Part shown: piece by piece, positions 13,211 to 64,000 of the stretch | How positions within the stretch are numbered: position 1 is the stretch's first letter | Layout: each line of letters opens with the position of its first letter | Source: Candidatus Bathyarchaeota archaeon | GTDB lineage: Archaea; Thermoproteota; Bathyarchaeia; Bathyarchaeales; Bathycorpusculaceae | DNA length: 64,000 bases | Reading direction: 5' to 3' | Assembly: GCA_963770935.1 (NCBI GenBank) | Contig: CAVYRJ010000004.1 | Span: forward strand, 101,745 to 165,744 | Program-made: the position numbers and the translations under genes | The notes under the pieces: generated by a model | The model's input: the letters and a program-made list of their open reading frames with translations, nothing else | What the model was told of the DNA's origin: nothing | The model's database searches: none

Positions 13211-13213
13211 ACG

Positions 13214-13920: not shown

Positions 13921-14018
13921 TAGAACAATTCACCAATTGACTGTGAGATTTAAAACAATTAAGCCTGTGTGGTTACACCTTAACAGTCACAAGTAATCTG
14001 GTGCCCGGACTGATGTTT

Positions 14019-14231: not shown

Positions 14232-14304
14232 TTTTGCTCACTGATACTTAAACGTTAAAGTTAAAAAACCCTTCCAACTTACTAGTAATTGGTCGTGTTA
14301 TTTT

Positions 14305-14721
14305 TTGAAAAAACTTGAATTAACCACAATAACCCAAAAAGTTATCATCCCAAAAGTCTCCCCAAAACAAGTCTACGAAGCCTACGTGGACCCAAAAAAA
14401 CACAGCGAATTCACAGAAAGCAAAGCTACAGGCAAACCAGTAGTTGGAGGCAAATTCACCGCTTGGGATAAATACATCTCAGGCAAATTCGTAGAACTTG
14501 AAGAAGGGAAACGAGTAGTTCAAGAATGGACATCGACGGATTTTCCTGAAGGTTACCCTCCATCTAAGCTGGAGTTGACTTTTCGTGAAGTGCCTAAAGG
14601 AACAGAAATCACCATGGTGCACTCCAACGTTCCAAAGGAGATTGCGGATGACGCAGCTGATGGTTGGACGGAGTTCTACTGGGAGCCAATGAAGAAATAT
14701 TTCAAAAAAGAGAAGAATTAG
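14305..14721 (+). CDS. SRPBCC/AHSA1 (START-like) domain protein
   Basis: SPKQVYEAY...VVQEW...GWTEFYW. Confidence 0.85.
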   Translation: MKKLELTTITQKVIIPKVSPKQVYEAYVDPKKHSEFTESKATGKPVVGGKFTAWDKYISGKFVELEEGKRVVQEWTSTDFPEGYPPSKLELTFREVPKGTEITMVHSNVPKEIADDAADGWTEFYWEPMKKYFKKEKN

Positions 14722-14732
14722 TGCAAAACCAA

Positions 14733-47736: not shown

Positions 47737-48123
47737 AAACGTCCAATCAAATAACAATTTCCCCTTTTTTAGTCAATCAACAATCAAATAATGGCAATAA
47801 AGAGGATGGGTCGAGGCTGAGAAGGCTCTGGATAATATGTGCAACCAAAGAAGCTATGGTCTTGGAGATTTGTCTTCCTTTTTCTCCTATATTTTGTTCC
47901 AGAGCCTCAGCAAACTCTGAATAGCAAAAACTCAGCCTTGGAAAATCCTGGTTATGGACGAGTCAAAGTAAAGTACTCAGAGTTCTAGTCTCCGCAAAAC
48001 TCAAAAGAGTTTGTATTTTCGAAGAGTTTTCATTTTCTTATGCTCACGCTACGTGAGCGCGGTTTATTAGTTCTAACTATAAACTTGGGTTTGCTTTGAA
48101 TAACTTGATTTAGGGGCTAATTC

Positions 48124-48951
48124 ATGATTAATGAAGATTCATACACTCAAGCTTTGATGAAGCTAGGGCTTACATTTTTGCAATCAAAAATATATCTAAC
48201 CCTTGCTAGAGTCGAGAAAGCAGATGTAAAAATAATTGCCAAGTACTCTAACGTTGCTCGTCCAGATGTGTATAGGGTAATTTCAGCTCTTGAAAAAATA
48301 GGGCTGGTGCTGAAAATAATTGATAATCCTACCAAGTATGAAGCTATCCCCCTAAAAGAAGGCTACTCCATCCTGCTCGAAAAACGAGACAGAAAACATC
48401 AGGAACTGAAAAATGAAATATGCAAACTATTTAAGAATGCGCCCAAGGTAAAGGCAGCGCTGTCAGAGGATGAGCAATTTGTTCTAATATCCTCAAAAAC
48501 ACTCTTCCAAAAAAAGTGCTTAATTGAGGATAACAAGGTTCAAACCAACATAGATGTCATAGGTGATCAGATTGCGGGGGCTTGGTTTTACAGACATAAT
48601 CAGGTTTTTCGGGAAGCACTAAATAGAGGCGTAAGAATTCGAATTGTTACAGGAAAAAATGATTATGAACAAATGGTCAAAATAAAGGGTATGTTTTCTG
48701 ACAAGCCGTTGGCATTTGATATTAGATATGTAGATTCGACTCCTGTTAATGCAGTATTGTATGATGGGAAAAAAGGTTGGCTTTGTATTCATCCCCCCTG
48801 CGAAAATACGTTTCCTATTCCTGTTCTATTTTCAGGTAACCCGCAGTTTATAGAGTTGCTGACAATTTACTTTGAAAAAATGTGGAATGATGCACAATAC
48901 CTATTCGTGCATGCAAAGAAACAGAGTCATGAACCAATAGTCATACATTAG
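48124..48951 (+). CDS. TrmB-family transcriptional regulator
   Basis: LGLT..QSKIYL, RPDVYRVISALEKIGLV HTH, ALNRGVRIRIV and FEKMW PLD-like effector domain. Confidence 0.85.
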   Translation: MINEDSYTQALMKLGLTFLQSKIYLTLARVEKADVKIIAKYSNVARPDVYRVISALEKIGLVLKIIDNPTKYEAIPLKEGYSILLEKRDRKHQELKNEICKLFKNAPKVKAALSEDEQFVLISSKTLFQKKCLIEDNKVQTNIDVIGDQIAGAWFYRHNQVFREALNRGVRIRIVTGKNDYEQMVKIKGMFSDKPLAFDIRYVDSTPVNAVLYDGKKGWLCIHPPCENTFPIPVLFSGNPQFIELLTIYFEKMWNDAQYLFVHAKKQSHEPIVIH

Positions 48952-49634
48952 TTTTTGTGATCAACCCTGAATGAAAAAACCATGTGGCAAAAACTTAGAG
49001 AGTATATGATCATATAGCAAAAAAGATAGCTGCTGAGTTATTGTTCCATTTAGGGCCTGTTGAACGTACTCTTTCAACGCTGATATTGCCTATGTTAGGT
49101 GCTTGAAAATTACAAGTTAGATTCTTGGCAGTACTTCAGAACCGCTTGTTCTTCAACCAAGTTTAGATTTAGCCTTCTAGCCGACTTGGGAACAAAGGAT
49201 AAAGGGAAAAAACTAATTGCTCAAAGATAAGCTTCGTGTGAATTACTACTTGACGCGGCTCTTCTGGGCTTCATTTTTTGGGGTTGAATCTATGTTTTTG
49301 GCATTTAGCTACTGCAAATGTCTTTTGAAATATGTTTTTTGTTTGTCAAGAAAATTTGCCTTGTAAATCTTGTCAAAAAAGGTTTTACACATGACTCATC
49401 AAACAGTATAGCAGGAATCTGATAGGGAAGTGGGTAACATGGCAATCAACCACTATGTAATAACTCATAGACTTCTTATAAGAATACAAAAGCACGGATG
49501 CGTTTTCTGCCCAATATGTCACAACCCAATCGTTGAAGGACAACGAGTAGCTACCAGAAAAAGGACAACCGTTAGACATGAAGAGTGCTATGAGCGGTCT
49601 CATGTTTAAGAATAAAACTGCCTGAGCTGACCTG

Positions 49635-50931
49635 ATGTTAGTACAACAATTTGAATCCACCAAGAAAGAGACAGACACTACTTTTATCTATCCTCAATAT
49701 GACAAGAACTGCATCCTAAAAATACCAAACACCGTACTTCATTTGCTTGGCGCAGAAAATAATAAAACCGGTCCGCCCCTTGAAAACGCATTAAACTCGG
49801 TTTGTGGTGAAGGAATAAACAAAGTTGTTCTTCTAGTCATTGACGGATTCGGATTCAACCAGTTCCTAAATTATCATCAAGAAAACCAATTCTTAACCAG
49901 CCTCACCGACAAAGGCGAAGTGTATCCCTTAACAAGTGTCTTTCCGTCTCAAACAACAAATGCCTTAACAACTCTGAACACAGGTTTAACCCCGCAGGAA
50001 CATGGATTGTTTGAGTACTTCATCTACCTGAAAGATATTGGTTTGGTAAACTCGCTTAATTTTGAATGCATAGATTCCAAGCGTCCAAAATAAACTAAGA
50101 TACGAAGGATTTGACCTAAGTGCTCTTCTTTCAAAAGGTAAAACCATTCACAGCACATTAAAAGAACAGGGAATCAGCAGCTTCGCACATATCCAAGCTT
50201 CGAATGCCTCTAGCGCCTGTTCAAAACTAATTTTTCAGGGAAGCAAAATAGTACCCGCCGTTAAGCCATCTGATTCAATTGTTGGATTAAGAAAAAACCT
50301 GGAAGACAACAAAGGCAAGTGCGCATATTTTTTTGTGCATATAGATACTCTTGACACGATTTCCCATCAATATGGACCGGAAAGCTATGAGTATTATGCA
50401 GAATTATCATTGATTACTTATTTACTTAAAAGGGAATTAGTGGAGAAAATCGATCATAAAACTGCTAAAGAAACTCTTCTTCTAGTGACCGCTGATCATG
50501 GCGGTGTGAAGGTTGATCCAAAACAAACAACGTATCTTAATTGTTTCCCCAAAGCAATATTGAATTTGCAAGTTGGACGGAATCGAAAACCAATTTTGCC
50601 CATAGGTAGCCACAGGGAAGTTTTTCTACATATCAAGGATGAGAAGCTTGCTGAGACAAAGCAATATTTAACGCAAAAAATTGGTGACAAAGCCCAAATC
50701 ATTGAAACTAAAGAAGCAGCTAAAAAGGGTTTGTTTGGATTGGGTTTTGCAGGCAGTGAGTTTCTTGAAAGAACAGGCAACTTGTTGATTTTGCCCTATG
50801 GAAACCATACAGTGTGGTTTGAGGATTCGGATTGCAGAAAATCTAGTTTTCTGGGTCAACATGGAGGATTAAATGAGCAGGAAATGCTTGTTCCATTTGC
50901 AGTAGCTAATCTTTGCGGTTTAAAAGAATAG
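49635..50931 (+). CDS. Alkaline phosphatase/nucleotide pyrophosphatase-family protein; apparent frameshift(s) near 50090
   Basis: LVIDGFG, SVFPSQT, DTISHQYG, TADHG, GQHGG across two ORFs. Confidence 0.82.
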
Positions 50932-51047
50932 ATATCGATTCTGTAAATAAATTGCAGCCCGCTTTGCCTAAAATTTTTTGGATATATTGCGAATTAAGAA
51001 ATATTGCTTATAGATTCTGATATTTTACTTTTCTTTGGCGATGACCA

Positions 51048-51305
51048 ATGCTGAAACGTAGCCGAGTAACCATCACAATAGATATCTTAGAAGCGACCTT
51101 GACGCCTCAGAAAAAAATGAAGATAATGTACCAGGCAAATCTGAATTACGTCCGTTTTAACCGATATCTCTCTGACTTTCTGAGCAAAGGTTTCATCGAG
51201 GCCTTAAAGGATGCTGACGGTTATGGTTGCTACCGCATTACTTCAAGGGGCAAAGCTTTGCTGGTGTTGCTTAGGAAAGTAAATGACCTTGGATATTCCA
51301 TTTAG
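51048..51305 (+). CDS. Archaeal winged-helix regulator (HTH_45-like)
   Basis: KRSR..I..DIL, IMYQANLN, YRITSRG. Confidence 0.85.
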   Translation: MLKRSRVTITIDILEATLTPQKKMKIMYQANLNYVRFNRYLSDFLSKGFIEALKDADGYGCYRITSRGKALLVLLRKVNDLGYSI

Positions 51306-51841
51306 TAAAATTTTTTTGAGATTTTAGAAAATAGATTTTATTATTTGGTTTGTTTTGAAATGATGCAATTGTGCAAAATGCGGTTGTGTCATCATCACCA
51401 TCATCATCTTCTTGTAATGCCCTGCAGATGGTTTGCTCGTTTAATTTTAGTTTTTTCTGTTTTTGTTTTGAGTTGTGTTGGTTTAATTTTAGTAGTTTTT
51501 TTGATGTTTTTTGGGTAGTTTGTGTTTTTACTTTTTTCAATTTGTTTTGTTATTTTGATTTGTTTTTGATTTGAAATTTTAAAAATGATTCATTTCGATT
51601 TTGTAAATTGTTCTATAATTGTGGTGTTTTTGTGTGTACCTGAGGGCTCTACTTGTTGCCCTTCATACTTTATAACTTTAGACCGCTTTGTTCTTGAGTA
51701 CCTAAGAAAACGTTTCGAGAATTGTCCACTCCGGTCACGGCGGGATTAGCTAGTGGTAACACGTGCAAAACTGGCCAATGGATTTTAGGTCATTAATTTT
51801 GAAAAAGACTGCGTTTTCTCTTTTTAAACGTTGAAGGGGTC

Positions 51842-52201
51842 ATGTTGTCTTTGAAAGATAGAAAAACGGTCAACAAGAATCGCAGCAGTTTAGATATTGT
51901 GCGGGAAGTTCTTTCCATCGCTATAGTTAAAGTTTGCAAAACTAGAATCATGTATGGAGCCAATCTGAGTTTTCATCAACTCGAAAAGTACCTGCGAGCT
52001 CTTCTGGGAAACTCTCTTTTGTCATTCGACGGCGATTCTGGTTACTTGACTACTGCATCAGGAAAAGAGTTTCTTGCGCTCTATGAAGATTATCTAAAGC
52101 GATCTACTCATCTGGGCAAGGAAGTCGAAAGGAATATCAAAGACAAAGAGCACCTAGAAAACATGTGTGGATTTGGAAAAGACAAATCCAGTAACAACTA
52201 A
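51842..52201 (+). CDS. Archaeal winged-helix regulator (HTH_45-like)
   Basis: NRSSLDIV, KTRIMYGANLS, TASGKEFL. Confidence 0.85.
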   Translation: MLSLKDRKTVNKNRSSLDIVREVLSIAIVKVCKTRIMYGANLSFHQLEKYLRALLGNSLLSFDGDSGYLTTASGKEFLALYEDYLKRSTHLGKEVERNIKDKEHLENMCGFGKDKSSNN

Positions 52202-52248
52202 TTGTTAGTTACTTTTTACGTAAAATAATGAATTAGGTGTGTTAAGAA

Positions 52249-52479
52249 ATGAAAATCCCAAAAAGGGTTAAGGTTAGGTGTGAGTGTGGCGAGGAACTTT
52301 TGCTATTGCCCGATTTGAAGGAAATGGGTAGCGCCATAGAAGACCATGTGGATATGCATCTTCAAGGTTTGAAAGCTCCCAGTTGCACACCTGCAGAAGC
52401 TGAACGTCTAAAAAATATGTTAATTGCTCAGATCATAACTATCGCAAGCCAACCTGAAGACGAAGAAACCATTAGATAG
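52249..52479 (+). CDS. Small putative Zn-binding hypothetical protein
   Basis: CECG...HVDMH motif; GGTG ribosome-binding site upstream. Confidence 0.65.
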   Translation: MKIPKRVKVRCECGEELLLLPDLKEMGSAIEDHVDMHLQGLKAPSCTPAEAERLKNMLIAQIITIASQPEDEETIR

Positions 52480-52857
52480 AAACCAAGAGATCTTTTTTGG
52501 CCTCGATATAATACGATTTTTTGAATATGCAATTATATCCTTTTGTAATGTTGCTTGGTTAATTAGAAATGATTGAGGAGAAAAGGAGGCTATTTCAACG
52601 CTTTTTTCGAGGATTAGGGGGCTTTTTAAGGAAGTTGGTAAGAACTCTTTAATACAAGTTGCACTGAAAATAGCATTAGCGTTCTCGAGGAAGGCGAATT
52701 GTCTTAACGTTTAGCTTATCCGTTTTTCCTTGTTTCTGTCCGCTTCTGTCAGGAAGGGATTTCTTAGATTTGAGTCTAAAATTTTGTTTTGGTTTTTGGG
52801 GGCTTAGCCTCTTTTTTTGCATTAGTGATTTTTATTCGGGCGTTTTGTGTTAGCGGC

Positions 52858-52971
52858 TTATTGCCCTAGCCAATATATGATCCAGCCTGCTATGAAGACT
52901 GCCAGAAACAAGGGTAAGAGCGAAACTAATGCAAGCTTGCTGCGTTTTTTTCTACAGGTTGCATTTATCAT
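52858..52971 (-). CDS. Short single-TM protein, truncated paralog of 61664-61891
   Basis: RKKRSKL + TM + FIAGW..Y..GQ shared with the 75-aa ORF; stops right after GQ. Confidence 0.6.
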   Translation of the reverse strand: MINATCRKKRSKLALVSLLPLFLAVFIAGWIIYWLGQ

Positions 52972-53168
52972 TTCAGCACCTGTATTATGCTCTTGCGGAA
53001 CTCTTAATATATAAGGTTTTGTAATTGTCGGCGCACCAATCAACCACCAAAAAAATAGTTATGCAAATTTGTTAGCCAATTATTGGTTGTTGCGGAATTG
53101 TGGTAGCAAGTTGAGATTGCAAAGGTTGATATATCATCGAAGTTACTAAAAGAATTAATCTCGAAAAG

Positions 53169-53894
53169 TTGACGCAGATAAAAGAGTTTGAAAGCGTGGT
53201 TAAAAAAGAAAAGCAAAATGCCCCTTCGACGCAAGTTCTAATTGCAGCTATAAACGAGGAAGAAGGCATCGGCCACACCATATCCGAGTTAAACAAAACC
53301 CTTGGGAATCCAAAGATTTTGGTTGTTGACGGCAGAAGCAAAGATAAAACCGTTGAAGTGGCCAAGGAATTGGGCGCCCAAGTTGTTGTGCAGGATGGTT
53401 TAGGCAAAGGTGACGCGTTAGCTTCAGCAATCAAGGTTGCAGATTTTACAGCAGATTATGTTGTTATCACCGACGCAGATTACACCTATCCCGCAGAGTA
53501 TATTCCTGAGATGATTCGGGTTTTAGAGGAGAATCCTGACATTGGCATGGTTTGCGGCAACCGCTTCAGCGGCTACTTAAACTTGAAAGGGTTAAACGGC
53601 TTTTTTTATTTGGGAAATCGCGTTATAGCTTTTACTCACAACTTTCTAAACGGAGTCGCCTTAACTGACCCCTTGACAGGGTTGCGTTTAGTGCGTGCGA
53701 GCATTCTTAAAGACTGGAAGGTGAAGTCCAAAGGTTTTGATGTTGAGGTGGAGCTTAATCATCGTGTCGAGCGTGAAGGCTTTGGCATTGCGGAGGTTCC
53801 AATTCAGTATCGTGAACGGTTAGGCGAGAAGAAGCTTGGGTTTAGGCATAGTGTTGAAATTTTTAGGCGCATAATGTCAGAAGCAACGTACTAA
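53169..53894 (+). CDS. Family 2 glycosyltransferase (DPM1-like), copy 1
   Basis: NEEEGI, VVDGRSKDKT, GKG, DADYTY, GNR, GFDVEVE, EVPIQYRER. Confidence 0.9.
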   Translation: MTQIKEFESVVKKEKQNAPSTQVLIAAINEEEGIGHTISELNKTLGNPKILVVDGRSKDKTVEVAKELGAQVVVQDGLGKGDALASAIKVADFTADYVVITDADYTYPAEYIPEMIRVLEENPDIGMVCGNRFSGYLNLKGLNGFFYLGNRVIAFTHNFLNGVALTDPLTGLRLVRASILKDWKVKSKGFDVEVELNHRVEREGFGIAEVPIQYRERLGEKKLGFRHSVEIFRRIMSEATY

Positions 53895-54117
53895 CTTTTG
53901 CTTGCGTGATTTGGCATTTATCATTTCAGCACCTGTATTATGCTCTTGCGGAACTCTTAATATATAAGGTTTTGTAATTGTCGGCGCAACAATCAGCCAC
54001 CAAAAAAATAGGTAGCAATTTTTTAGCTAATTATTGGTTGTAGCGGAATTGTGGTTACAAGTTGAGATTGCAAAGGTTGATATATCATAAAAGTATCTAA
54101 AGAACTAATCTCGAAAG

Positions 54118-54844
54118 TTGAGCAGCTAAAAGAGTTTGAAAGCGTGGTTAAAAAAGAAAAGCAAAATGCCCCTTCGACGCAAGTTCTAATTGCAGCTATA
54201 AACGAGGAAGAAGGCATCGGCCACACCATATCCGAGTTAAACAAAACCTTTGAGGAATCCAAAGATTTTGGTTGTTGACGGCAGAAGCAAAGATAAAACC
54301 GTTGAAGTAGCCAAGGAATTGGGCGCCCAAGTTGTTGTACAGGATGGATTAGGCAAAGGTGACGCGTTAGCTTCAGCAATCAAGCGTTGCAGATTTTACA
54401 GCAGATTATGTTGTTATCACCGACGCAGATTACACATATCCCGCAGAGTATATTCCCGAAATGATTCGGGTTTTAGAGGAGAATCCTGACATTGGCATGG
54501 TTTGCGGCAACCGCTTCAGCGGCTACTTAAACTTGAAAGGGTTAAACGGCTTTTTTTATTTGGGAAATCGCGTTATAGCTTTTACTCACAACTTTCTAAA
54601 CGGAGTCGCCTTAACTGACCCCTTGACAGGGTTGCGTTTAGTGCGTGCGAGCATTCTTAAAGACTGGAAAGTGAAGTCCAAAGGTTTTGATGTTGAGGTG
54701 GAGCTTAATCATCGTGTCGAGCGTGAAGGCTTTGGCATTGCGGAGGTTCCAATTCAGTATCGTGAACGGTTAGGCGAGAAGAAGCTTGGGTTTAGGCATA
54801 GTGTTGAAATTTTTAGGCGCATAATGTCAGAAGCAACGTACTAG
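54118..54844 (+). pseudogene. GT2 copy 2 with two apparent frameshifts
   Basis: Near-identical to copy 1 but split into ORFs 54250-54489 and 54461-54844. Confidence 0.75.
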
Positions 54845-54932
54845 CTTTTGCTTATGTGATTTGTGGGTAGGCGGTTGTTAATCTTGGTAAAGTTCATATT
54901 TCCCACGGTGGGAATTTCTTTGGTGGGAAAAA

Positions 54933-55166
54933 ATGGCCGCTGAAGAAGTAACTGTTGACAAGAAAGGGCGTGTACAAATTCCCAAAGCAATCCGAGATAA
55001 AGTCGGATTACGCGTTGGCGGAAAAGCTCGCCTAAAAATAGAAAAAGAAAATATAATTATCATGCCCCCAATTTCACCTGAAGAATTCATTAGAGAAATG
55101 GAAGGCTGCATCAAGGAAGGCGCCCCCGACCTTGATCCGCTGAAGCTTAAGAAAATGTGGGAATAG
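54933..55166 (+). CDS. AbrB/MazE/SpoVT-type antitoxin (orphan)
   Basis: VDKKGRVQIPKAIR..GL..G; only a 3' scrap of a PIN gene follows. Confidence 0.85.
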   Translation: MAAEEVTVDKKGRVQIPKAIRDKVGLRVGGKARLKIEKENIIIMPPISPEEFIREMEGCIKEGAPDLDPLKLKKMWE

Positions 55167-55360
55167 GGTGTGCTTGAGCAAAAAGTCTTTACTTTGCGAA
55201 ATATAATCTCTTATTTTGACAAGATCAAGCAGTTAATACGTCAAACACTTACTTGAAATTTACACAATAAAAGAAATAGATGCCAGGTTAACTTGGTTTG
55301 ATAAGTTGATTTAGAATAACTTATTATCTTAAGTGTCCTTATCGGTACTGGTGAGTTGCT

Positions 55361-55570
55361 ATGGCTGAAACAGTTTCAATTCCTCGTCCGCTATTAAAAG
55401 AGCTCTACGAACATTTTGACCGAATAGAAGAGATTCTAGCTACGCTCGAAGAGCTTTCAGATAAAAAAGGGCTAAAGAGAATTAAAAGAAGTCTTGAAGA
55501 ATACAAGAATAAAGAATGCGTTACGCTCTCAAGTTCTGATAAAATCAGAGAAGCCCTCCTGAAGGACTAG
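55361..55570 (+). CDS. Putative antitoxin
   Basis: 69-aa acidic helical ORF (ATLEELSD) directly upstream of a RelE-like fragment. Confidence 0.7.
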   Translation: MAETVSIPRPLLKELYEHFDRIEEILATLEELSDKKGLKRIKRSLEEYKNKECVTLSSSDKIREALLKD

Positions 55571-55572
55571 GT

Positions 55573-55707
55573 TTGCAATACAAGTCGATTTTCACTAAGA
55601 GTTTCAAAAAGGAATTTTGCAAACTTCCAAAAGGCATCCGAGAAATTATTCTTAAGAGTTTGGAAAAAACAATAGTGAATCTAAGACTTAAGGGCGATTG
55701 GCATTGA
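55573..55707 (+). pseudogene. Truncated RelE/ParE-like toxin
   Basis: Own translation MQYKSIFTKSFKKEFCKLPKGIREIILKSLEKTIVNLRLKGDWH*: RelE N-terminus without the C-terminal strands. Confidence 0.65.
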
Positions 55708-55798
55708 CTGTTTCTGGTTTGGCGCCGGTTCAAGTTGTCTCTATGGTTAGATGCAATAATCATTAAATAGGAAACAAGCCAATAGAGTTTGAGAAGAC

Positions 55799-55993
55799 AT
55801 GACAATTGAAGTTGAGCTAAAGGAAATAAAAAGTCTGCTCTCAGAGTTAAAACAGAAAATGGATGTTCTGCTTGAAGAAAAAGAAACTTCAACAATGATG
55901 GGCCTATCCGACAAATCGCTTAAGGACTTCTTTGCAAAAGAACCTGACATTTACACAATTAAAGATATAAAAGCCAAGGTTAACTGCGTTTGA
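55799..55993 (+). CDS. Putative antitoxin of the MazF/PemK pair
   Basis: 64 aa, overlaps the toxin start (TTGA). Confidence 0.75.
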   Translation: MTIEVELKEIKSLLSELKQKMDVLLEEKETSTMMGLSDKSLKDFFAKEPDIYTIKDIKAKVNCV

Positions 55994-56316
55994 AGGGAAA
56001 AATAGTCCTTATACCTTTTCCGTTCACAGACCTAACAGCAACCAAACTAAGGCCTGCACTTGTTCTTTATGAAGGAGAAAAAGATGTCGTAGTAGCCTTC
56101 ATTTCCTCCAGAACGGACAAACCAAAACCCGTCGACATCGCCATCAACGAAAAAAACGCAGAATTCAAACAAACAGGACTCAAACTAACCTCAACCATAA
56201 AACTCGACAAGGTCGCAACAATATCAAAAGATCTCATTATAGGCGAAATCGGTGAAATAGGACCTAAACTCAAAAAAGAAGTAAACCGCAAAATCACGGA
56301 AATCTACAATTTGTAA
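55990..56316 (+). CDS. MazF/PemK-family toxin
   Basis: GKIVLIPFPFTD..KLRPALV, TGL..S.IKLDK. Confidence 0.9.
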   Translation: MKGKIVLIPFPFTDLTATKLRPALVLYEGEKDVVVAFISSRTDKPKPVDIAINEKNAEFKQTGLKLTSTIKLDKVATISKDLIIGEIGEIGPKLKKEVNRKITEIYNL

Positions 56317-56451
56317 GGTACGCTTTTTCTTTTGAGACAAAGCCTTCAAATCGTTTTAAGATTAGATTTCCTTTTTTCTGGATGCTTGGAAAGTTTAAAG
56401 ATTTCCGGATTGTATTTGTTGCATAAGAATTAAGGGCGATTTGCATTAACT

Positions 56452-56652
56452 GTGACAGTTAACAACGCTGAAGTAAAGTTGGTTCTTGAAAAATTAGGCA
56501 GTGTCCAACTTGAACTTTTGAGGCTTAGAGCATTGCTTCTACCTGAAGAAGAGTTATCTGGGGAAGAAAAAGAGAGACTTGATGTAGCTCGAAAAGAAAC
56601 TGCAAAAGGCCAAAAAATAAGCCTTGATGTCTTACTTAAAGAACGGTGTTGA
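56452..56652 (+). CDS. Orphan antitoxin, paralog of 60225-60431
   Basis: Protein and about 75 bp of upstream DNA match 60150-60431; no RelE follows. Confidence 0.75.
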   Translation: MTVNNAEVKLVLEKLGSVQLELLRLRALLLPEEELSGEEKERLDVARKETAKGQKISLDVLLKERC

Positions 56653-56956
56653 CTTAATTCCTTCAAGGGTTAAGCGGATTAATTTCCTCGTGGATTCGGC
56701 TCAAGCGAAGTTGCTTTAAGAGTATCTCTCATGCAAAACCTGGGTTAGTTAACTATGACCGAAGGAAATAGCGATAGAAGAGAGGGAAATTCGCAAGGAA
56801 TTTTGCGATGGTATAAGAGTTTTTATCAAGACAACGACTACGCAAAAAACCTTGACCAAACAGTTATCAGAATGCGTGAGCTGGAACTTTGCTGATGGCT
56901 TGTTTGGGGCTTGGGTTTTGAAGGTTTAAATTTTATGTTTAATAATTGTTTATGTT

Positions 56957-57226
56957 GTGTTTGATGTGTCTTTATCCAGTGTTGTCGATGAGTTTCCTTT
57001 GTTTAGGGAAAGGGAGTCGAAAGAGCGTTTTTTGTTGGTTTTGGGTCTTCTTGCTTCTCGAACTGTTACTTTAGGTAAGGCCGCTGAGGTTTTAGGTATG
57101 TCTCATGTAGAGTTTTCGGCGGTGCTTAGGAGTATAGGTTTTAAGTTTAGTTATTTGGATGATGAAGAGTTGACCAAAGAAGTGGTTGCAGGCAAAGATT
57201 TGTTGAAGAAGAAGCGGTGTAGTTGA
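56957..57226 (+). CDS. UPF0175-family antitoxin-like HTH protein (orphan)
   Basis: VTLGKAAEVLGMS..EF...L motif. Confidence 0.8.
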   Translation: MFDVSLSSVVDEFPLFRERESKERFLLVLGLLASRTVTLGKAAEVLGMSHVEFSAVLRSIGFKFSYLDDEELTKEVVAGKDLLKKKRCS

Positions 57227-57415
57227 AGGCTGCGTTGGGGAAATTCGTTGGGAATAGCACTTCCGAAAGCACTAGTTGACCAAGAAGGGCTCAAAGAAGG
57301 CGAAGAAGTAGAGGTAACTGTGAGAAAAACATCTGATATAAGTTGCCTAAGAGGCAAATATCTGTTCAAAAACTTGCAGCATGAGAAAGACGAAATGAAA
57401 CACGGTTGGCAATGA
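57227..57415 (+). pseudogene. 5'-truncated AbrB/MazE antitoxin
   Basis: Own translation RLRWGNSLGIALPKALVDQEGLKEGEEVEVTVRK...GWQ*; WGNS motif, no start codon. Confidence 0.7.
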
Positions 57416-57495
57416 TTTGATCGTTGAAGCTTTGTCTTGGTTTTATCACTATTTTTATATCTGCCTATTCATCTTAACATGTTGGCGAATAATTT

Positions 57496-57720
57496 ATGCG
57501 TGATTTCGATGTAGTTCTTTTGGAAGATGAAACTGGAGGTTACGTGGCTATAGTGCCTGCTTTGCCTGGATGTCATACGCAGGGTGACACGTTGGCTAGT
57601 GTTTTGGAAAACGCTAAAGAAGCCATAGATCTTTATTTGGAAACCTTGACTGCTTCGGAAAAGAAAGATTTGTTGAAGGGAAAAGTTGTGGGCATACAAA
57701 AAGTGAAAGTTCTTGCCTAA
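57496..57720 (+). CDS. hicB: HicB-family antitoxin
   Basis: GGYVAIVPALPGCHTQGDT...NAKEAI. Confidence 0.92.
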   Translation: MRDFDVVLLEDETGGYVAIVPALPGCHTQGDTLASVLENAKEAIDLYLETLTASEKKDLLKGKVVGIQKVKVLA

Positions 57721-57946
57721 AATTCCGCCTGTTGATTCTAATCAATTAATTAAAATATTGAGTCATAAAGGTTTTAATGTTATCCGTCAAAAAGGTTCAC
57801 ATGTTATTCTGATAGATAACGCGAAAAGTCGAATAGTTATACCTATACATCCAGGAAAAGACCTCAAGCCAGGATTAGTTAGGGCAATACTTAGAGAAGC
57901 TGGAATAAGTCGAGAAGAATTCCTCAAGCTATTGAAAGAAAAATAG
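57713..57946 (+). CDS. hicA: HicA-family toxin
   Basis: GF...RQKGSH, IPIHPGKDL.PG...IL..AG. Confidence 0.92.
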   Translation: MPKIPPVDSNQLIKILSHKGFNVIRQKGSHVILIDNAKSRIVIPIHPGKDLKPGLVRAILREAGISREEFLKLLKEK

Positions 57947-58356
57947 ACTATAAAGTTATTTTAGAAACATTTGTACTTACTGTGGTTTTCATAAAAAGTT
58001 TGCTCGAGGGTACTTATTGATGAAGCTTGGATTACAAACTTGTCTTTGTGGCAGCTGCTTTAATTGGCTGATTAACTATTGCTTCTCCAGCCTCCGCTGG
58101 TGCCATTTATAGATAACATCCTACAAATAAGCGATGTAACCTTAAGGCAGAAAAACCTGCATGTGAAGACGCGTAATCTCAGAAGCTACGTATTAAGCAA
58201 GGTTTAGTTTATTTGTGTTTGTTCTTCTTGAGAAATTATGATGGTTTTAAGTGGGAGTCTTATGGGTGGCTCTGAGTTTGGTTTTTGTCGTTTTTTGGCT
58301 TTTTTGGCAATAAACTTATATTTGTTATTTATGTGATGGTTTGTCGGTGGTTTGGG

Positions 58357-58608
58357 TTGTCTGTTGAGGTTGGCAAGTATGGCCGCATCGTTTTACCTAA
58401 GCGGTTGCGTCAAAAATATAGTATGCATGAAGGCATCAGACTAATTATTACAGAGTATATGGGGCGAATCTGTCTAATCCCTGTTGAAACCTACAAAAAA
58501 CCTGCCGAAGCATTATACGGCTCCATAAGCCCCCGCTCCCCTATCGATGAGCCAAAACAGTTAGCAAGAGAATACATACGGAAAAAACTCGTTGAGGACT
58601 ATCAGTGA
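58357..58608 (+). CDS. AbrB-type VapB antitoxin
   Basis: VGKYGRIVLPKRLR; TTG start 58357; GTGA overlap with the toxin. Confidence 0.82.
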   Translation: MSVEVGKYGRIVLPKRLRQKYSMHEGIRLIITEYMGRICLIPVETYKKPAEALYGSISPRSPIDEPKQLAREYIRKKLVEDYQ

Positions 58609-59006
58609 AGCGCTTCGTAGATACGAATGTGTTCATCTACACCATTATTGCGCATCCGCGTTTTGGGAAAATAGCAAAGCAAATTCTTGAGCGTATTGAA
58701 GAAGGCGAAGATGCCCTAACTTCCACAGTAGTGTTGTGCGAAGTAGCTTGGGTGCTGGAAGCTATGGGCAGGCAAGGAGACATTAGGTCTACACTTGAAA
58801 AGATAATGTCTTTTCGAACTCTTGAGGTTGTGGATTTCAATGAGGATGATTTACTCATAGGCGCCAACAACATGTCTACGGAGCAAGTTGACTTCAATGA
58901 CGGAGTCAACCTTGCTTTGATTATGCGCCTTGGTATATCAGAAGTATACTCAAACGACCAGAAACACCTAGGCAAACTTGACTTCTTGAAATTGATATTC
59001 GAGTAA
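58605..59006 (+). CDS. PIN-domain VapC toxin
   Basis: FVDTNVF, E, DFND, YSND acidic residues. Confidence 0.9.
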   Translation: MKRFVDTNVFIYTIIAHPRFGKIAKQILERIEEGEDALTSTVVLCEVAWVLEAMGRQGDIRSTLEKIMSFRTLEVVDFNEDDLLIGANNMSTEQVDFNDGVNLALIMRLGISEVYSNDQKHLGKLDFLKLIFE

Positions 59007-59353
59007 TTGTGGCATAGATACAGATTAATATCCTTAAAATAAACAAAATAACTTTAAAGGCAGAAAAATCCGTATGAAGACGCATAATGTCTGAAGCAAC
59101 GTACTGACTTTTGCTTGCGTGATTTGTGGGTAGGTGGTTGTTGACCTTGGTAAAGCGTATATTTCCCTTGGTTGAAGAAAAAGTCAAGCAAGTTGAGCTT
59201 ATGAAAACAATAAAGCAGATGGAGTCAAGAGCCGAAAAAAGAATCACAACGGCCGACTCAAATCTTCTAGTAAGAGAGGATCGAGAACGATAAAAGTAAT
59301 ACTTGACTCTAACATATTAGTACTTTTATTAGGTACTACTTTATGATATTACT

Positions 59354-59596
59354 GTGGTTTTAAAGTTGGAAAGTGAAGTTGTAGTAACAAGGAAGGGGCA
59401 AACGACAATTCCAGTTAAACTTCGGCTAAAATACAAGATTGAAGAAGGAACAAAACTTCAAGTCGTAGATACAAATAACGGCATTCTTTTCAAACCGAAA
59501 TTATCAACAATGGATCTTGCAGGTTCAGGCGCCAAATACGCGTCAGTCGAGGAAATGAAAAAGCTCCTTGACAAGTTAAGGGATGAAGATGTCTAA
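59354..59596 (+). CDS. AbrB-type VapB antitoxin
   Basis: VTRKGQTTIP..LR.KY.I.EG. Confidence 0.88.
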   Translation: MVLKLESEVVVTRKGQTTIPVKLRLKYKIEEGTKLQVVDTNNGILFKPKLSTMDLAGSGAKYASVEEMKKLLDKLRDEDV

Positions 59597-59975
59597 AGCA
59601 GTTTATGACACTAGATTTTTTGTGGAAAATTATTACTCGCCAGACCCAATAATTATAGAAAAACTAAAAGAATCTTTGAGAAAAACCAAAGAACGATATA
59701 TTTCTGCTATAGTGATTCATGAAGTGTATCAGCTAACTCTAAGAAAAGAAGGCCGAGAAACTGCAATACTCCGTACAACACTTCTAGAGCAAGATTTTCG
59801 AGTTGTAAATGTTGATGCTGATATAGCAAAATTATCGGCTGAAATTAGACTAAACCATAAAATGTCGATGGCAGACAGCATAATAGCGGCCACAGCGATA
59901 TCGCTAAAAGCAATATGTATCTCGGATGACTTACATTTTAAGGCTGTTAGTGAAATTAAAACTCAATGGATTTAG
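59589..59975 (+). CDS. PIN-domain VapC toxin
   Basis: VYDT, HEV, MADSIIAATA, SDD.HF. Confidence 0.9.
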   Translation: MSKAVYDTRFFVENYYSPDPIIIEKLKESLRKTKERYISAIVIHEVYQLTLRKEGRETAILRTTLLEQDFRVVNVDADIAKLSAEIRLNHKMSMADSIIAATAISLKAICISDDLHFKAVSEIKTQWI

Positions 59976-60224
59976 CCAAAACTAGAAAATTTATAGATTT
60001 CTGGATTGTTGGTGCTATTCACAGATCAACATCCTAAAAATAAAACCATGTAACCTTAAAGGCAAAATCCCGCATGTGGGAGACGCGTAATGTCAGAAGC
60101 TACGGTCTAAGCAAGGTTTAGTTCGCAAGTTTGATAGGTTAATTTGCCAATTTTTTGGATGTTTGGAGAAACTTTAAAGATTTCAATATTGTATTTGTTG
60201 TATAAGAATTAAGGGTGATTTGCA

Positions 60225-60431
60225 TTGACTGTGACAGTTGACAACGCTGAAGTGAAGTTGGTTCTTGAAAAACTAGACAGTGTCCAGCTTGAACTTTTGA
60301 GGCTTAGAGCATTACTTCTACCTGAAGAAGAGGTATCGGAAGAAGAAAAAAAGAAACTTGATTTTGCTCGAAAAGAAATTGCAGAAGGCCAAAAAATAAG
60401 CCTTGACGCCTTACTTAAAGAACTGTGTTGA
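60225..60431 (+). CDS. Antitoxin of the RelE pair
   Basis: 68-aa acidic ORF 7 bp upstream of RelE. Confidence 0.8.
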   Translation: MTVTVDNAEVKLVLEKLDSVQLELLRLRALLLPEEEVSEEEKKKLDFARKEIAEGQKISLDALLKELC

Positions 60432-60438
60432 TTAGGGC

Positions 60439-60702
60439 TTGTTTGAGATTTTTCTATCGCAGAAAGCGAGAAAAGCCATAAAAAAGCTCCCTGAGCATTA
60501 TAGACGAAAAGTCATCGAGCTTCTCCTGATTTTGCGTGAAAATCCTGTTCCAGCGGAATACTACGATATAAAGAAACTTAAAGGCTGCACCGACACATAC
60601 AGAGCAAGAATCGGGGATATACGAGTAGTTTATGAAATCGTCTGGAATCAACGAATTGTCAATGTGCTGTTAATTGAACCAAGAGAAACAGCCTACTCTT
60701 GA
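60439..60702 (+). CDS. RelE/ParE-family toxin
   Basis: A.K.IKKLP, KKLKG, YRARIGDIRVVY. Confidence 0.92.
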   Translation: MFEIFLSQKARKAIKKLPEHYRRKVIELLLILRENPVPAEYYDIKKLKGCTDTYRARIGDIRVVYEIVWNQRIVNVLLIEPRETAYS

Positions 60703-60986
60703 AATCTAATGAAAACTTGCTTATTGCTTCTCCAGCCTTTGCTGAAGCTATTCACAGATAAACATCCTACAAATAACGGATGTAACCTTAAGGCAGAAAA
60801 ATCTGCTGTGGAGACGTGTAATGTCAGAAGCTGCGGTCTAAGCAGAGGTTTAGTTTGCTAGTATTTGTTGTTCTTGGGGAATCATGGTGAATTCGACTTT
60901 ATCTTGTTTTTTTGGTGTTGTCTTTTGCGTTATCGATCATTTAGTATAAATATGGGTTATACTTAGGTATAACTTGGGGTAAGACT

Positions 60987-61232
60987 TTGATTGACCAGGA
61001 AATGAAAGTTGGTCCAAAAGGCCAAGTAGTCATACCGCGAACGATGCGAAAAGCGCTCAAAATAGAACCAGGATCCAAAGTATTATTCACACTACAAGAC
61101 GACAAATTAACCCTGCAAAAACCCTGTTTTGATGGGGTAGCTGCTTTCAAAAAAATAGCCGAGCAAATAAAGTCAAATGAGAAAATAAATCCTCACGAAT
61201 ACGAAGAAGAACTTGAACAGAGAAATCCCTAA
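60987..61232 (+). CDS. AbrB-type VapB antitoxin
   Basis: VGPKGQVVIP..RKAL.I.PG; TAATG overlap with the toxin. Confidence 0.88.
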   Translation: MIDQEMKVGPKGQVVIPRTMRKALKIEPGSKVLFTLQDDKLTLQKPCFDGVAAFKKIAEQIKSNEKINPHEYEEELEQRNP

Positions 61233-61627
61233 TGCTTTACCTTGACGCAAACGTTTTCATCTACGCAGCCATAAACACCCAAGAAATTGGCGAAAAAGCA
61301 AGGACTTTGCTCTTAAAAATCCAGCAAGGAGACCAAAAAGCAGCTACCTCAGCATTAACGTTTGACGAAGTATTTTGGTCAATAAAGAAACGTAAACCAG
61401 AACTCGCCTCAGAAACATCTTACGCCCTCTTAAACTTCCCCAATCTTGAAATCATACCCGCTGACAGAAAATTGGCCTTGTCGGCTTTAAAATTAATCAA
61501 TGAATACAATTTAGCGCCAAGAGACGCCCTCCATGCCGCTACAGCGATAGCTTCAAAAGCAGATTTTGTAGTCTCAACGGACGCTCATTTTGACAAGATC
61601 AAAGAGTTAACACGTCAGTCAATCTAA
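61232..61627 (+). CDS. PIN-domain VapC toxin
   Basis: YLDANVF, DEV, PRDALHAATA, STD.HFD. Confidence 0.92.
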   Translation: MLYLDANVFIYAAINTQEIGEKARTLLLKIQQGDQKAATSALTFDEVFWSIKKRKPELASETSYALLNFPNLEIIPADRKLALSALKLINEYNLAPRDALHAATAIASKADFVVSTDAHFDKIKELTRQSI

Positions 61628-61663
61628 AACGCATAATGTCTGAAGCTACGGTCTAGGCAAAGT

Positions 61664-61891
61664 TTAGTTCGCAAGTATTTGTTGTTCTTGAGGAATCATG
61701 CCCAATTCGACTCCGTCATGTTGCTGTGTTGGTGTTTTGTTGGTTGGTTTTTGGGGTTGTTTTGTGTTTTGATGCCATGCTTGTCCTATACAGTAAAGGC
61801 TCCAGCCGGCTATGAAGATTAATGGCAATATAGGTGCTAAAAGGAGAACTGTGAGTTTGCTGCGTTTTTTTCTACTGGTTGATTTTGTCAA
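61664..61891 (-). CDS. Small single-TM hypothetical protein whose 3' end forms the repeat right arm
   Basis: RKKRSKL + TM + Q/K/P/T tail ending IPQEQQILAN*. Confidence 0.7.
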   Translation of the reverse strand: MTKSTSRKKRSKLTVLLLAPILPLIFIAGWSLYCIGQAWHQNTKQPQKPTNKTPTQQHDGVELGMIPQEQQILAN

Positions 61892-62313
61892 ATCAATGCC
61901 TGCTCCAATCTTGCAACTTAATTTTTAACATATAACCTTTATGAATTGTCAATACACATAATGCAATCGTCGAACACCTGAACAGAAAAACAAATGACGA
62001 ACACCGCTCTAATTTTTAAGCGCATAATGTCAGAGGCAAACATTCTTAGAGTAAGTTTTTGATAATAAATTATCTATAGAAACTTGAGCTTTTGGTTTAG
62101 ATATATTACGGTTTTTTGAATACACATTATAAGCTTTGTTAAGACTTGCAAGTTGAGAATAAAAGAAGAAGAGACAGAGGTTTCAAGTTGACTTTGCCAC
62201 AGGGAAAAAACCAGGTTGTCTTGCTTCTTATTTTTAATTGTTGTGTTTGGTCTAAACTGTTTCACGATTCTACTTGCTTAAAAAAAGGAATAACTCTTGT
62301 AAGGTGTTGAAAC

Positions 62314-62958
62314 TTGGTTTTGAAATCTAGTAAAATTCTCGCCATTGGGGCACACCCTGATGATATTGAACTAGGTTGTGGTGGTACTGTTAGCGCTGCT
62401 TGTGCGGCAGGTGCAAATGTTGTCGCGGTCTTTTTAACCAAAGGCGAGCAAAGTGGAAACCCTGACTCTAGACGCCAAGAAAGCGTGGATGCTTTGAATC
62501 TTCTTGGGGTAACGAACATATATTTTGGGGATTTTTCAGATGCTGATATTCCGAATTCTCGCCAAGTAATCGATTTTCTAGAATCTTTCTGCAAGAACGG
62601 AGAAATCGAAACAGTCTTAACGCACACAATAAACGATTCACATCAAGACCACCGACAAGTAGGCTGGCTTTCATTGTCCGCGTTTAGAAATGTTCCGCGA
62701 ATATTAGCATATGAAACCCCAAGGGTAACACCAAACTTCTCGCCAACCTACTTTGTTGACATATCTAACTTCGTAGAAGGAAAATGGGCAGCATTAAAAT
62801 GCCACCTGTCGCAAAAAACAAAAAGATATCTTGCTTACGAGTCGATGATTAATTTGGCCTCATTTAGAGGTAGCCAAGTTAATGTTCGTGCAGCTGAAGC
62901 CTTTGAAGTGATACGATATTTGGAAAAAAACCAAATCGTTCCACATGTGATTAAATAA
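62314..62958 (+). CDS. PIG-L/LmbE-family deacetylase
   Basis: AHPDDIELGCGG, HQDH, H.SQ, AEAF. Confidence 0.92.
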   Translation: MVLKSSKILAIGAHPDDIELGCGGTVSAACAAGANVVAVFLTKGEQSGNPDSRRQESVDALNLLGVTNIYFGDFSDADIPNSRQVIDFLESFCKNGEIETVLTHTINDSHQDHRQVGWLSLSAFRNVPRILAYETPRVTPNFSPTYFVDISNFVEGKWAALKCHLSQKTKRYLAYESMINLASFRGSQVNVRAAEAFEVIRYLEKNQIVPHVIK

Positions 62959-62959
62959 T

Positions 62960-63633
62960 ATGATTGTGGCTGGGCATCAACCTAATTATTTGCCTTGGTT
63001 AGGTTTTTTTGACAAAATTCGTCGTTGTGACCTCTTTATTATTGAAGATAATGTTCAGTATGAGCAGCAGGGTTTTACGAATAGGAACAGGATAAAGACG
63101 CCTGATGGTGCTAAATGGTTGACGGTGCCTATTGAGCATGTTGGGGGTCGTATGTTGATTAATGAGGTAAAGATTTCTAAGAAAGCTGAACCTGATTGGG
63201 CTAAACGCCATTGGCATAGCTTAAAGCACCATTATAGTAGAGCTCCGTTTTGGAAAGCGTATTGTGGTTTTTTCGAGCAAACTTACGCCAAAGAATGGAC
63301 CATGCTCTTTGATCTTAATTTATATTTGATAAGAGGCATTATGCGTATTTTTAACATCGAGACGCCTCTTATATGGCATCTTCTTTGGGTGTTTTTGAGG
63401 GAAAAAGCGAAGCAGTTCTTGCTAAAAGCAAAAAAGTTGGAGCTGATACGCTTCTCTGTGGGAGGGGAGCGAAGGAATGTATTGATCTGAAGAGGTTTGA
63501 AGATGAAGGAATCAAAGTGGTCTTTCAAGATTTTCACTATCCAAAGTACCCGCAGCTTTACGGCGGGTTCGTAGATGAACTTTCGGTTGTCGACTATTTA
63601 TTTTGTAATGGAAATCAATTTACCGTAAACTAA
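62960..63633 (+). CDS. WbqC-family protein; apparent frameshift near 63370
   Basis: HQPNYLPWLGFF, NRNRIK, WLTVP; tail YPQLYGGF...LSVVD in the next frame. Confidence 0.85.
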
Positions 63634-63657
63634 TTCCTGACCTTGGAGGTTTTCTTT

Positions 63658-64000
63658 ATGGAAAAAACTAGACGAGTGTTCTCTGCGTCTCCATTCTTCG
63701 ATGAGCGAAGCGTCGAATTAATCTTGAGTGAAATCGGCCAAACCCTGAAAAGTGGGGTTCTGACTGATGGTCCACGCGTTCAGGAATTTGAGCGGCAATT
63801 CGCAGATTATGTTCACACCAAGCATGCAATTGCTGTGAGTTCAGGAACAGCTGCGCTGGAAATAATGCTTAGGTTTTTTAATATCGAGAATAGAGAAGTC
63901 ATTGTTCCAACAAACACTTTCGTTGCTACACCCACCTCTGTTTTGTTCTCAGGGGGCAAACCGGTTTTTGGAGATATGAAGGCGGAGACTCTCTGCGTTG
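63658..64000 (+). CDS. DegT/DnrJ/EryC1/StrS sugar aminotransferase (partial)
   Basis: Own translation ...GPRVQEFE...AVSSGTAAL...VIVPTNTFVAT...GGKPVF. Confidence 0.9.
   Translation, partial: MEKTRRVFSASPFFDERSVELILSEIGQTLKSGVLTDGPRVQEFERQFADYVHTKHAIAVSSGTAALEIMLRFFNIENREVIVPTNTFVATPTSVLFSGGKPVFGDMKAETLCV

Follow-up and report, generated by a model that had tools for sequence, protein, structure and literature searches.

How does a row of unrelated toxin-antitoxin (TA) genes come to stand between repeats of a single gene end, and is an integrase needed to place it there? The question is raised by one end of contig CAVYRJ010000004.1 (C4) in the draft genome of a Candidatus Bathyarchaeota archaeon (Bathyarchaeales, Bathycorpusculaceae; GenBank assembly GCA_963770935.1), where five co-oriented type II TA cassettes lie between copies of a short core repeat, itself the end of a GT2 glycosyltransferase gene. 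Every TA operon reads on the + strand, and a single junction separates each cassette from the next. We analysed positions 101,745 to 165,744 of the contig, a stretch of 64,000 nucleotides hereafter called the window, whose own numbering is used throughout. TA genes accumulate in many archaeal genomes and their arrival route is rarely visible; here, the stacking is readable junction by junction. We favour, with a probability of about 0.5, the reading that general or unequal recombination, acting between repeated gene-end junctions, stacked the cassettes in a decayed and repeat-rich glycosylation gene cluster. The preliminary description of the locus had proposed a logic of attachment (att) sites, in which attL-, attR- and attP-type arms are shuffled around a constant core.

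The common core is a glycosyltransferase gene end

With up to three mismatches allowed, the 22-nt core ACGCRTAATSTCWGARGCWRCG matches eight places in the window, all on the + strand, starting at 53867, 54817, 58169, 59080, 60083, 60814, 61629 and 62020 (span 53867-62041); shuffled sequence gave a mean of 0.01 matches, and 0 of 100 shuffles reached eight. These are the eight sites first described, whose positions were off by 1 nt at most. The whole 1.98-Mb draft genome holds no copy beyond them, and an nhmmer profile of the junction found no hidden degenerate junction inside cassette 1 or elsewhere in the genome. The constant core is real, at a length of 30 nt rather than the 21 bp initially given: the segment common to all junctions reads AGR CGY RTA ATS TCW GAR GCW RCG KWY TRR, and corresponds to the final nine codons and stop of the GT2 gene at 53169-53894, beginning at the RR codons. 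Seven copies differ from the GT2 end at 0-7 of the 30 nt, whilst the relic at 62020 differs more. The core is no better conserved than the arms on either side of it; its variable sites fall on codon positions 1, 2 and 3 in the numbers 3, 2 and 6, too few for selection on the core codons to be claimed.

Two classes of left arm (X and Y) and two of right arm (A and B) adjoin the core, as had been proposed. Arm X, the GT2 coding end, precedes the cores at 53867 and 54817, and 62020 keeps ~9 nt of it; arm Y precedes 58169, 59080, 60083 and 60814, with 76-90% pairwise identity over 60 nt. On the right, arm A follows 54817 and 59080 (84-85% identity, 70 nt compared) and is cut at 19 nt behind 53867, and arm B follows 58169, 60083, 60814 and 61629 (76-91% identity over 45 nt). 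At 61629 the stop codon of a VapC toxin gene abuts the core. We rejected the possibilities that Y is a diverged X, or A a diverged B, as neither pair showed significant similarity in shuffle tests (p 0.28-1.0 and 0.26-0.86, respectively).

The two X-A junctions, at 53867 and 54817, were correctly recognised at the outset; they lie within the units of one 950-bp tandem duplication, whose joint falls 19 nt into arm A, and so count as one site rather than two independent ones. The third X, at 62020, is indeed present, in those ~9 nt: together with the core they form the 39-nt tail of another GT2 copy, since deleted. Homology of the region of the convergent membrane-protein gene (TM-long, see below) to relatives stops at 61986, before this relic.

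The first codon of the core tracks the left arm, being AGG beside X and AGA beside Y, and a later codon tracks the right arm, being GCA where arm A follows and GCT where arm B does, so that an exchange between unlike arms, such as Y-A from Y-B and X-A, must fall within the intervening 17 nt. The core at 59080 is such a hybrid, with the Y-linked AGA on its left and the A-linked GCA ACG TAC on its right. The earlier claim that crossovers fall inside the core holds for these unlike arms, whose homology switches only at the core edges, and does not hold for one public contig, described below, in which the exchange lies in arm B.

The arms are worn chromosomal genes

Arm Y is the remnant of a DUF1616 pseudogene. 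Searching with the DUF1616 protein of relative G124, tblastn gave 81% over 26 aa at 58030-58107, and BLAST of Y against G124:C1 gave 85% over 41 nt; the intact G124 gene (199 aa) belongs to Pfam PF07760 (E 1.3e-14). Identical internal deletion joints in all four Y copies indicate one progenitor. Relatives have DUF1616 paired with the gene of a 167-aa S-protein, and on G118:C9 a single strand carries, in order, GT2, S-protein, DUF1616 and GT2. The end of this second GT2 gene (GCT ACA TAT TAA G) agrees with the core type linked to Y rather than with that of X, and the right half of core copy 3 (GCT ACG TAT TAA G) resembles it. Y-core would therefore be best read as DUF1616 fused by deletion to the final 30 nt of a lost second GT2. 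As the arms are worn chromosomal genes, X-core and Y-core can be the ends of two tandem paralogues, and need not be an att duplication.

To judge from its sequence, arm B is the 3' end of TM-long, a small membrane-protein gene convergent with the array. Partial B copies, holding ~54, 25 and ~95 nt of the 3' end of this gene, stand behind 58169, 60083 and 60814; the one at 60842 still encodes the TM-long C-terminus, MIPQEQQILAN and stop, with three synonymous and no non-synonymous changes in the final 11 codons. The distal part of arm A ('ggtaaag' onward) is the upstream region of an AbrB-type antitoxin gene (AbrB1), and the same region precedes the orthologue on G065:C10. For the proximal 45 nt of arm A no source was detected (p 0.38-0.94), and an origin downstream of the G065 S-protein gene was rejected as not significant.

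Y lengths are nested around the core, at ~147, 103, 71, 67, 28 (in relative G133) and 0 nt. Such nested truncations, of Y and of the partial B copies alike, are the expected trace of a circle carrying a partial junction, or of unequal exchange. The identities of Y and B at the same junction are uncoupled, the Y at 58169 being closest to that at 60814 and the B at 60814 closest to that at 61629. The attP-type arms of the att scheme do not survive this comparison: a DUF1616 remnant and a membrane-protein gene end, both with nested truncations, stand in their place.

The S-protein gene deserves separate mention. On G124:C1 (~14018-14060), where it lies directly upstream of DUF1616, its final codons share with the core, in frame, an identical stretch of 12 nt (TGTCTGAAGCAA), to which no role could be assigned. 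On G065:C10 (~2230-2260), TA genes follow the corresponding S-protein gene end. This gene end is possibly a second, related hot spot, or the likeness is a matter of chance.

The cassettes carry unrelated toxin-antitoxin pairs

By Pfam, the cargo comprises AbrB/MazE-type antitoxins with PIN toxins (three times), HicB-HicA, antitoxin-PemK/MazF, antitoxin-ParE and UPF0175, for all of which TA activity is predicted. Parts of the composite cassette 1 are 90-96% identical in DNA to relatives G012, G121 and G065. The fragment at the start of cassette 3 matches an intact pair in G133, and the AbrB3/VapC3 pair of the same cassette is 91.6% identical in DNA to G133, where the pair occupies another place. 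The VapC pairs of different cassettes are only 24-37% identical, against 76-91% for the junctions. Simple tandem duplication had been said not readily to give the reciprocal mixing of arms; nor can it be the source of these unrelated pairs between near-identical junctions. A 264-nt stretch comprising an antitoxin gene and its upstream region is itself duplicated, at 56389-56652 and 60168-60431 (90% identical, repeat D2); the cassette 1 copy no longer has a ParE partner, and a third fragment of its start lies at 55682-55711.

Empty, one-cassette and core-less sites in relatives

The core pattern occurs in 13 of 120 genus genomes including that of our archaeon (12 of the 119 others), once or twice each, and is the GT2 gene end in every relative locus inspected. 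An empty X-core-B site had been predicted, and we found it in three relatives: on G065:C10, G065:C98, G002:C4 and G136:C9, the GT2 end is directly convergent on B and TM-long with no cassette between them, with the caveat that GT2 is a remnant in G136 and perhaps in G002, and that the G065 contigs begin or end inside GT2. The G136 alignment scored 54 against a null maximum of 35 (1000 shuffles), and left of TM-long on G016:C4 no GT2 remnant was detected (p 0.58). One half of the att logic, by which removing cassettes through core exchange leaves X-core-B, is matched by these relatives; its other half calls for a putative enzyme, and no recombinase gene lies on the contig.

A one-cassette version is found in G133, where the single cassette behind GT2-core combines a RelE fragment with an antitoxin-PIN pair; Y, here 28 nt long, comes next, then a core that has diverged, B and TM-long. 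This locus also has an inverted fold-back duplication at the contig end (G133:C23, local 4584-15000, centred at ~9660), which carries many indels in its second arm and has most likely arisen as an artefact of long-read assembly; the inverted second copy was excluded from analysis. In searches of the genus, of all species genomes, and of JGI metagenome and viral contigs, G133 was the only other species in which a Y-core was found. The Y-core pattern picked out nine stretches of the JGI contigs, all unrelated on inspection, and eight in all species genomes, two of them being one G133 contig and the other six failing the junction profile. A core-B pattern gave 0 matches in species genomes because it was too strict, the junction profile later finding the empty sites, and the core and A-arm patterns gave 0 and 0 in viral contigs.

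The TA modules themselves have, as sequence comparison indicates, spread horizontally and recently: they are 90-96% identical in DNA between species, against 70-77% for the flanking genes. Some occupy sites with neither core nor Y, between two winged helix-turn-helix (wHTH) cluster genes in G133, upstream of TM-short (a truncated TM-long paralogue) in G121 and behind the S-protein gene in G065; G012 likewise carries TA modules at core-less places. On G065:C10 the TA genes known from cassette 1 are found beyond TM-long, behind the S-protein gene, with 87% for AbrB1 and 97% for the MazF antitoxin.

Junction variants in public metagenomes

Contigs of four public runs, from four studies, were aligned to 53700-62200 at >=88% likeness. 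Each run covers at most 0.13 of this stretch and so represents related populations; array parts without public contig cover are uninformative. X-core-A is reproduced in runs X3 and X4, and run X3 has a diverged Y in front of core-A. In run X2, VapC5 (8 differences in 377 nt, 98%) and the core are followed by an A-type arm (TACTAACTTTTG...) and not by B. One contig of run X4 lacks 58245-60908: its Y(58169)-core leads into 54 nt of B, to which cassette 5 is directly joined. The exchange in this contig fell within arm B, ~54 nt away from the core. From these variants it follows that cassette order differs in nature, and that exchanges occur both at the core and beside it.

Searches for a recombinase, hairpins and known RNAs

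The tyrosine recombinase models PF00589 and PF16795 had no match on C4 and seven matching places on six other contigs; near these seven tyrosine-recombinase-like places there is no core-like pattern. None of the open reading frames (ORFs) scanned in the window flanks is a recombinase, no IntI was found beside the array by these two models (no IntI-specific model was run), and in G133 there is none in the stretch examined beyond the array. Tyrosine recombinase matches occur in 112 of 120 genus genomes, and among the 150 places listed, out of a larger number (530 further matches), none is on an array contig. Assessed for attC-like folding, the seven junction stretches (136-141 nt, both strands) gave z-scores of -0.76 to +0.60 against 200 shuffles each, and the only dyad in the repeats is the 6-bp AACCTT/AAGGTT, ~60 nt apart; the repeats, which do not fold, are thus no attC array such as PMC9668308 describes for Archaea. 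That the repeats are a tRNA or other known RNA was rejected, three Rfam matches being far below gathering scores; the only tRNAs of the window are at 19350 and 44877.

Flanking genes and the surrounding cluster

The coordinates of the array and its flanking genes are collected in Table 1. The TM-short/GT2 pair is conserved in G012, G023, G118, G121, G133 and G136, and GT2 orthologues are 81% identical in G029 and G012. The second GT2 copy is broken into three frames (ORFs 54144-54278, 54250-54489 and 54461-54844). TM-long matches no Pfam family and has orthologues of 57-79% identity in G002, G016, G065, G133 and G136. The window ends at the end of C4, 2 kb beyond the array, in a draft genome of 18 contigs (1.98 Mb, 91% complete).

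The region is prone to duplication, as seen in the 950-bp GT2 duplication, a pair of TFB genes and a 5-kb repeat in a relative. The TFIIB/TFB genes (313 aa each, 41588-42529 and 43553-44494, - strand) lie 1965 bp apart with near-identical Pfam scores, and look like another recent tandem duplication. On G012:C10 (local 4148-14761), a 5-kb tandem repeat comprises the whole block of wHTH genes, TM-short, GT2 and AbrB-VapC pairs, and one more GT2, also broken, is present. Throughout the genus the cluster is prone to repeats. A WbqC-like gene (62960-63633) is split into two overlapping ORFs and a type I phosphodiesterase gene (49635-50931) into two ORFs, which are frameshifts or sequencing errors in the glycosylation cluster. 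Left of TM-short, 52740-52775 weakly resembles core and B (TGTCAGGAAGG...TCTTAG...TTTGAG), is spaced as one would expect of a TM-long-type gene end, and is perhaps an older, eroded convergent junction of GT2 and TM genes. G+C across 48000-64000 is 0.35-0.42, against 0.40-0.43 for the genome's contigs, which fits a frequently exchanged glycosylation island.

Table 1. Coordinates of the array, its arms and cassettes, and the genes on either side
Feature	Position	Strand	Basis
TM-short, truncated TM-long paralogue, divergent from GT2	52858..52960	-	tblastn of TM-long, 48% over 48 aa
Intact GT2 glycosyltransferase, 241 aa; its body is arm X	53169..53894	+	Pfam PF00535, E 2.8e-18
Core copy 1 (X-core, then A cut at 19 nt)	53865..53894	+	
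Second unit of 950-bp tandem duplication (first unit 52961-53913)	53914..54866	+	repeats D1, D7-D10; spacing 948-953, 89-100%
Core copy 2 (X-core-A; duplicate of copy 1)	54815..54844	+	
Arm A (second copy 59108-59172)	54845..54909	+	repeat D3
Cassette 1, 3.2-kb composite	54845..58019	+	Pfam
Cassette 1, orphan AbrB antitoxin	54933-55166	+	
Cassette 1, antitoxin and RelE fragment	55361-55707	+	
Cassette 1, antitoxin and MazF/PemK	55799-56316	+	
Cassette 1, orphan antitoxin	56452-56652	+	
Cassette 1, UPF0175	56957-57226	+	
Cassette 1, AbrB fragment	57248-57415	+	
Cassette 1, HicB-HicA	57496-57946	+	
Arm Y, longest copy (DUF1616 pseudogene remnant: N-terminal and internal piece)	58020..58166	+	tblastn/BLAST against G124; repeats D12, D13, D18
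Shorter Y copies	59011-59077, 60010-60080, ~60709-60811		
Core copy 3 (Y-core-B)	58167..58196	+	
Cassette 2: partial B (~54 nt), AbrB antitoxin 58285-58608, PIN/VapC toxin 58605-59006	58197..59010	+	Pfam, D6
Core copy 4 (Y-core-A hybrid)	59078..59107	+	
Cassette 3: arm A, fragment (antitoxin and PIN start) 59126-59335, AbrB 59354-59596, PIN/VapC 59583-59975	59108..60009	+	
Core copy 5 (Y-core-B)	60081..60110	+	
Cassette 4: partial B (25 nt), antitoxin 60225-60431, ParE/RelE toxin 60439-60702	60111..60708	+	PF05016 (toxin)
Core copy 6 (Y-core-B)	60812..60841	+	
Cassette 5: partial B (~95 nt), AbrB 60987-61232, PIN/VapC 61232-61627; no Y arm	60842..61626	+	
Core copy 7 (VapC stop-core-B)	61627..61656	+	
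TM-long, 75-aa membrane-protein gene, convergent with array	61664..61891	-	ORF
Relic end of another GT2 copy (X'-core; 22-mer with 3 mismatches)	62011..62047	+	repeat D5, 93% over 29 nt

Discussion

How, then, could the array have been built by general recombination? The ancestral layout would have been GT2_1, S-protein, DUF1616 and GT2_2 in this order, with the final GT2 convergent on TM-long. A single deletion would have fused the DUF1616 remnant (Y) to the final 30 nt of GT2_2, beside the TM gene end, giving Y-core-B, whilst the intact GT2_1 would have retained the same 30 nt as its own end (X-core). These repeats could then act as portable homology, either as the core alone (30 nt) or as the core with Y and B (100-250 nt, 76-91%). 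Unequal crossing-over between chromosome copies or between strains could add, remove or reorder TA cassettes, and Campbell-type insertion and excision of circles carrying a junction piece could likewise reshuffle them. The outcome would be X-A, Y-A, Y-B and VapC-end-B junctions with arms of differing length, for which no dedicated integrase would be required. We infer both this order of events and general recombination as the enzyme system. Speaking for them are the origins of the arms (Y from DUF1616, B from the TM-long end, distal A from upstream of AbrB1) together with the G118 gene order, the single progenitor of Y, the nested arm truncations, the empty sites and the region's proneness to duplication, as well as the run X4 exchange in arm B, the absence of a recombinase match on C4 and the core-less TA sites of relatives.

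Several points weigh against stacking by general recombination. Junctions of the Y-A, X-A and VapC-end-B kinds share only the 30-nt core (25-28 of 30 identical), which is short for homologous recombination, and the VapC5 variant of run X2 represents a recent exchange that stayed within the core. The two left arms Y and VapC end, unrelated to one another, both join within ~2 nt of the left edge of the core; this clustering of breakpoints, along with the 62020 relic and its mere 39 nt of GT2, suits a site-specific enzyme. As unrelated TA pairs lie between near-identical junctions, simple duplication cannot be their source, and a pool of single-cassette alleles must be assumed. Arrays bounded by copies of gene 3' ends are usually integrase products (PMC5704250, PMC6563490). 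The contig stops 2 kb after the array, and the sequence next to it could contain a recombinase gene.

The strongest competitor, possible but on balance doubtful, is site-specific accretion. A tyrosine (or other) recombinase acting in trans would recognise the 30-nt GT2-end core, integrase-less TA cassettes would act like cis-mobilisable elements or integron cassettes, and circles carrying Y-core-A or Y-core-B would integrate at any core, with the crossover inside it. Direct repeats matching the 3' end of the target gene at every junction, and co-oriented cassettes, are what such an enzyme would leave. Arm classes switch solely at the core edges (the 17-nt bracket), Y and the VapC end share a joining point at the left edge, and in run X2 VapC5-core is followed by an A-type arm, yet the run X4 variant was exchanged in arm B, and the core is no more conserved than the arms. 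Uncoupled Y and B identities at a junction also fit accretion, whereas Y and B lengths of 0 to ~150 nt leave no constant arm-type site, and both would-be attP arms are worn chromosomal genes rather than arms owned by an element. Relatives hold empty sites and a one-cassette site, and TA modules are far more alike across species than their flanks (90-96% vs 70-77%), but Y-core is found in one other species among all genome contigs, and in none of the metagenome and viral collections scanned. As to the enzyme, tyrosine recombinases are encoded in the genome, two of them at the ends of contigs C10 and C13, and PMC6563490 reports that archaeal elements, 14 of 68 in Thaumarchaeota, target the 3'-distal part of a protein gene, and mentions arrays; no recombinase lies in or beside the array here or in the G133 stretch examined, and the core-like pattern is nowhere beside the genome's recombinase genes. 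In its furthest form, accretion would amount to a hairpin-free, integron-like capture platform of a Bathyarchaeota type, in which a trans-acting recombinase, with the 30-nt GT2 end as universal attachment site, would excise, insert and reorder integrase-less TA cassettes that travel between species with a short Y-core tag; we consider this unlikely.

Improbable is the suggestion that a unit of cassette, Y, core and partial B was repeatedly duplicated in tandem, and that the cassette contents were then replaced by independent TA insertions. Three or four independent replacements, bounded exactly by partial B and Y, would be required, and Y-core-A is not produced without exchange in the core; tandem duplications are evident in the window and in relatives, and differing partial B lengths would mark different duplication end points, but the cassette contents show no recent similarity between junctions 76-91% identical, and the public-run contigs hint at cassettes and junctions in other orders. 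That the array is an assembly artefact of a repeat-rich metagenome bin seems very improbable indeed: independent runs reproduce X-core-A (X3, X4), Y-core-B (X4), Y-variant-core-A (X3) and VapC5-core (X2), even though this is an 18-contig draft with the array 2 kb from a contig end, and the second copy in G133 is a fold-back artefact. Least credible of all is a classical integron or CALIN (an attC cluster without integrase), which would suit a co-oriented, TA-rich array with repeats of ~130 nt and is reported, in PMC9668308, from 75 archaeal metagenome-assembled genomes in nine phyla including Thermoproteota, but which the unfolded repeats (z -0.76 to +0.60, a single 6-bp dyad), their composition from gene remnants and the lack of a nearby IntI by PF00589 and PF16795 speak against.

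Which known systems does the array resemble? Islands of the ICESt1/ICESt3 type have fda as their target. The accretion and cis-mobilisable elements described for such islands (PMC5704250) share with the array blocks without integrase, a logic of attL, internal att and attR, and an empty site in relatives; they differ in that our internal junction arms are chromosomal gene remnants rather than element DNA, and in that the array has units of 0.7-0.9 kb holding only TA pairs, in an archaeal host, with no integrase known for the site. Integron arrays and CALINs, as treated in PMC9668308, likewise have small co-oriented cassettes, many of them TA, with ~130-nt repeats, no adjacent integrase and an order that varies between strains; unlike them, the array has repeats without an attC hairpin or R'/R'' core pair, a 30-nt gene end as the shared element, and no IntI. 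The archaeal elements of PMC6563490 also target a protein gene end and leave it intact, with the stop at the junction, and arrays of tyrosine-recombinase elements are mentioned there; these elements carry their own integrase and measure 5-100 kb, whereas the array has none. The tycheposon islands of Prochlorococcus (bioRxiv 10.1101/2020.12.28.424599) are similar as fixed hot spots remodelled by excision and integration of small cargo, and differ in their tRNA targets, own recombinases and host, a bacterial plankton organism. We found no description, in open-access literature text, of cassette-stacking at gene ends in this archaeal lineage. Ours is a known kind of stacking, in an archaeal lineage where such text has not previously described it.

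The locus is a fixed hot spot between convergent genes, with no cassette in three species, one in another and five here, and with populations that carry other orders. Intact TA pairs, if active, would explain retention. If general recombination on worn gene ends suffices, then att-like cassette arrays can arise without a dedicated enzyme, and caution would be due before integrase scars are called from repeats alone. If, on the other hand, a trans-acting recombinase is at work, the array would represent a hairpin-free cassette system in an uncultured and globally abundant archaeal lineage.

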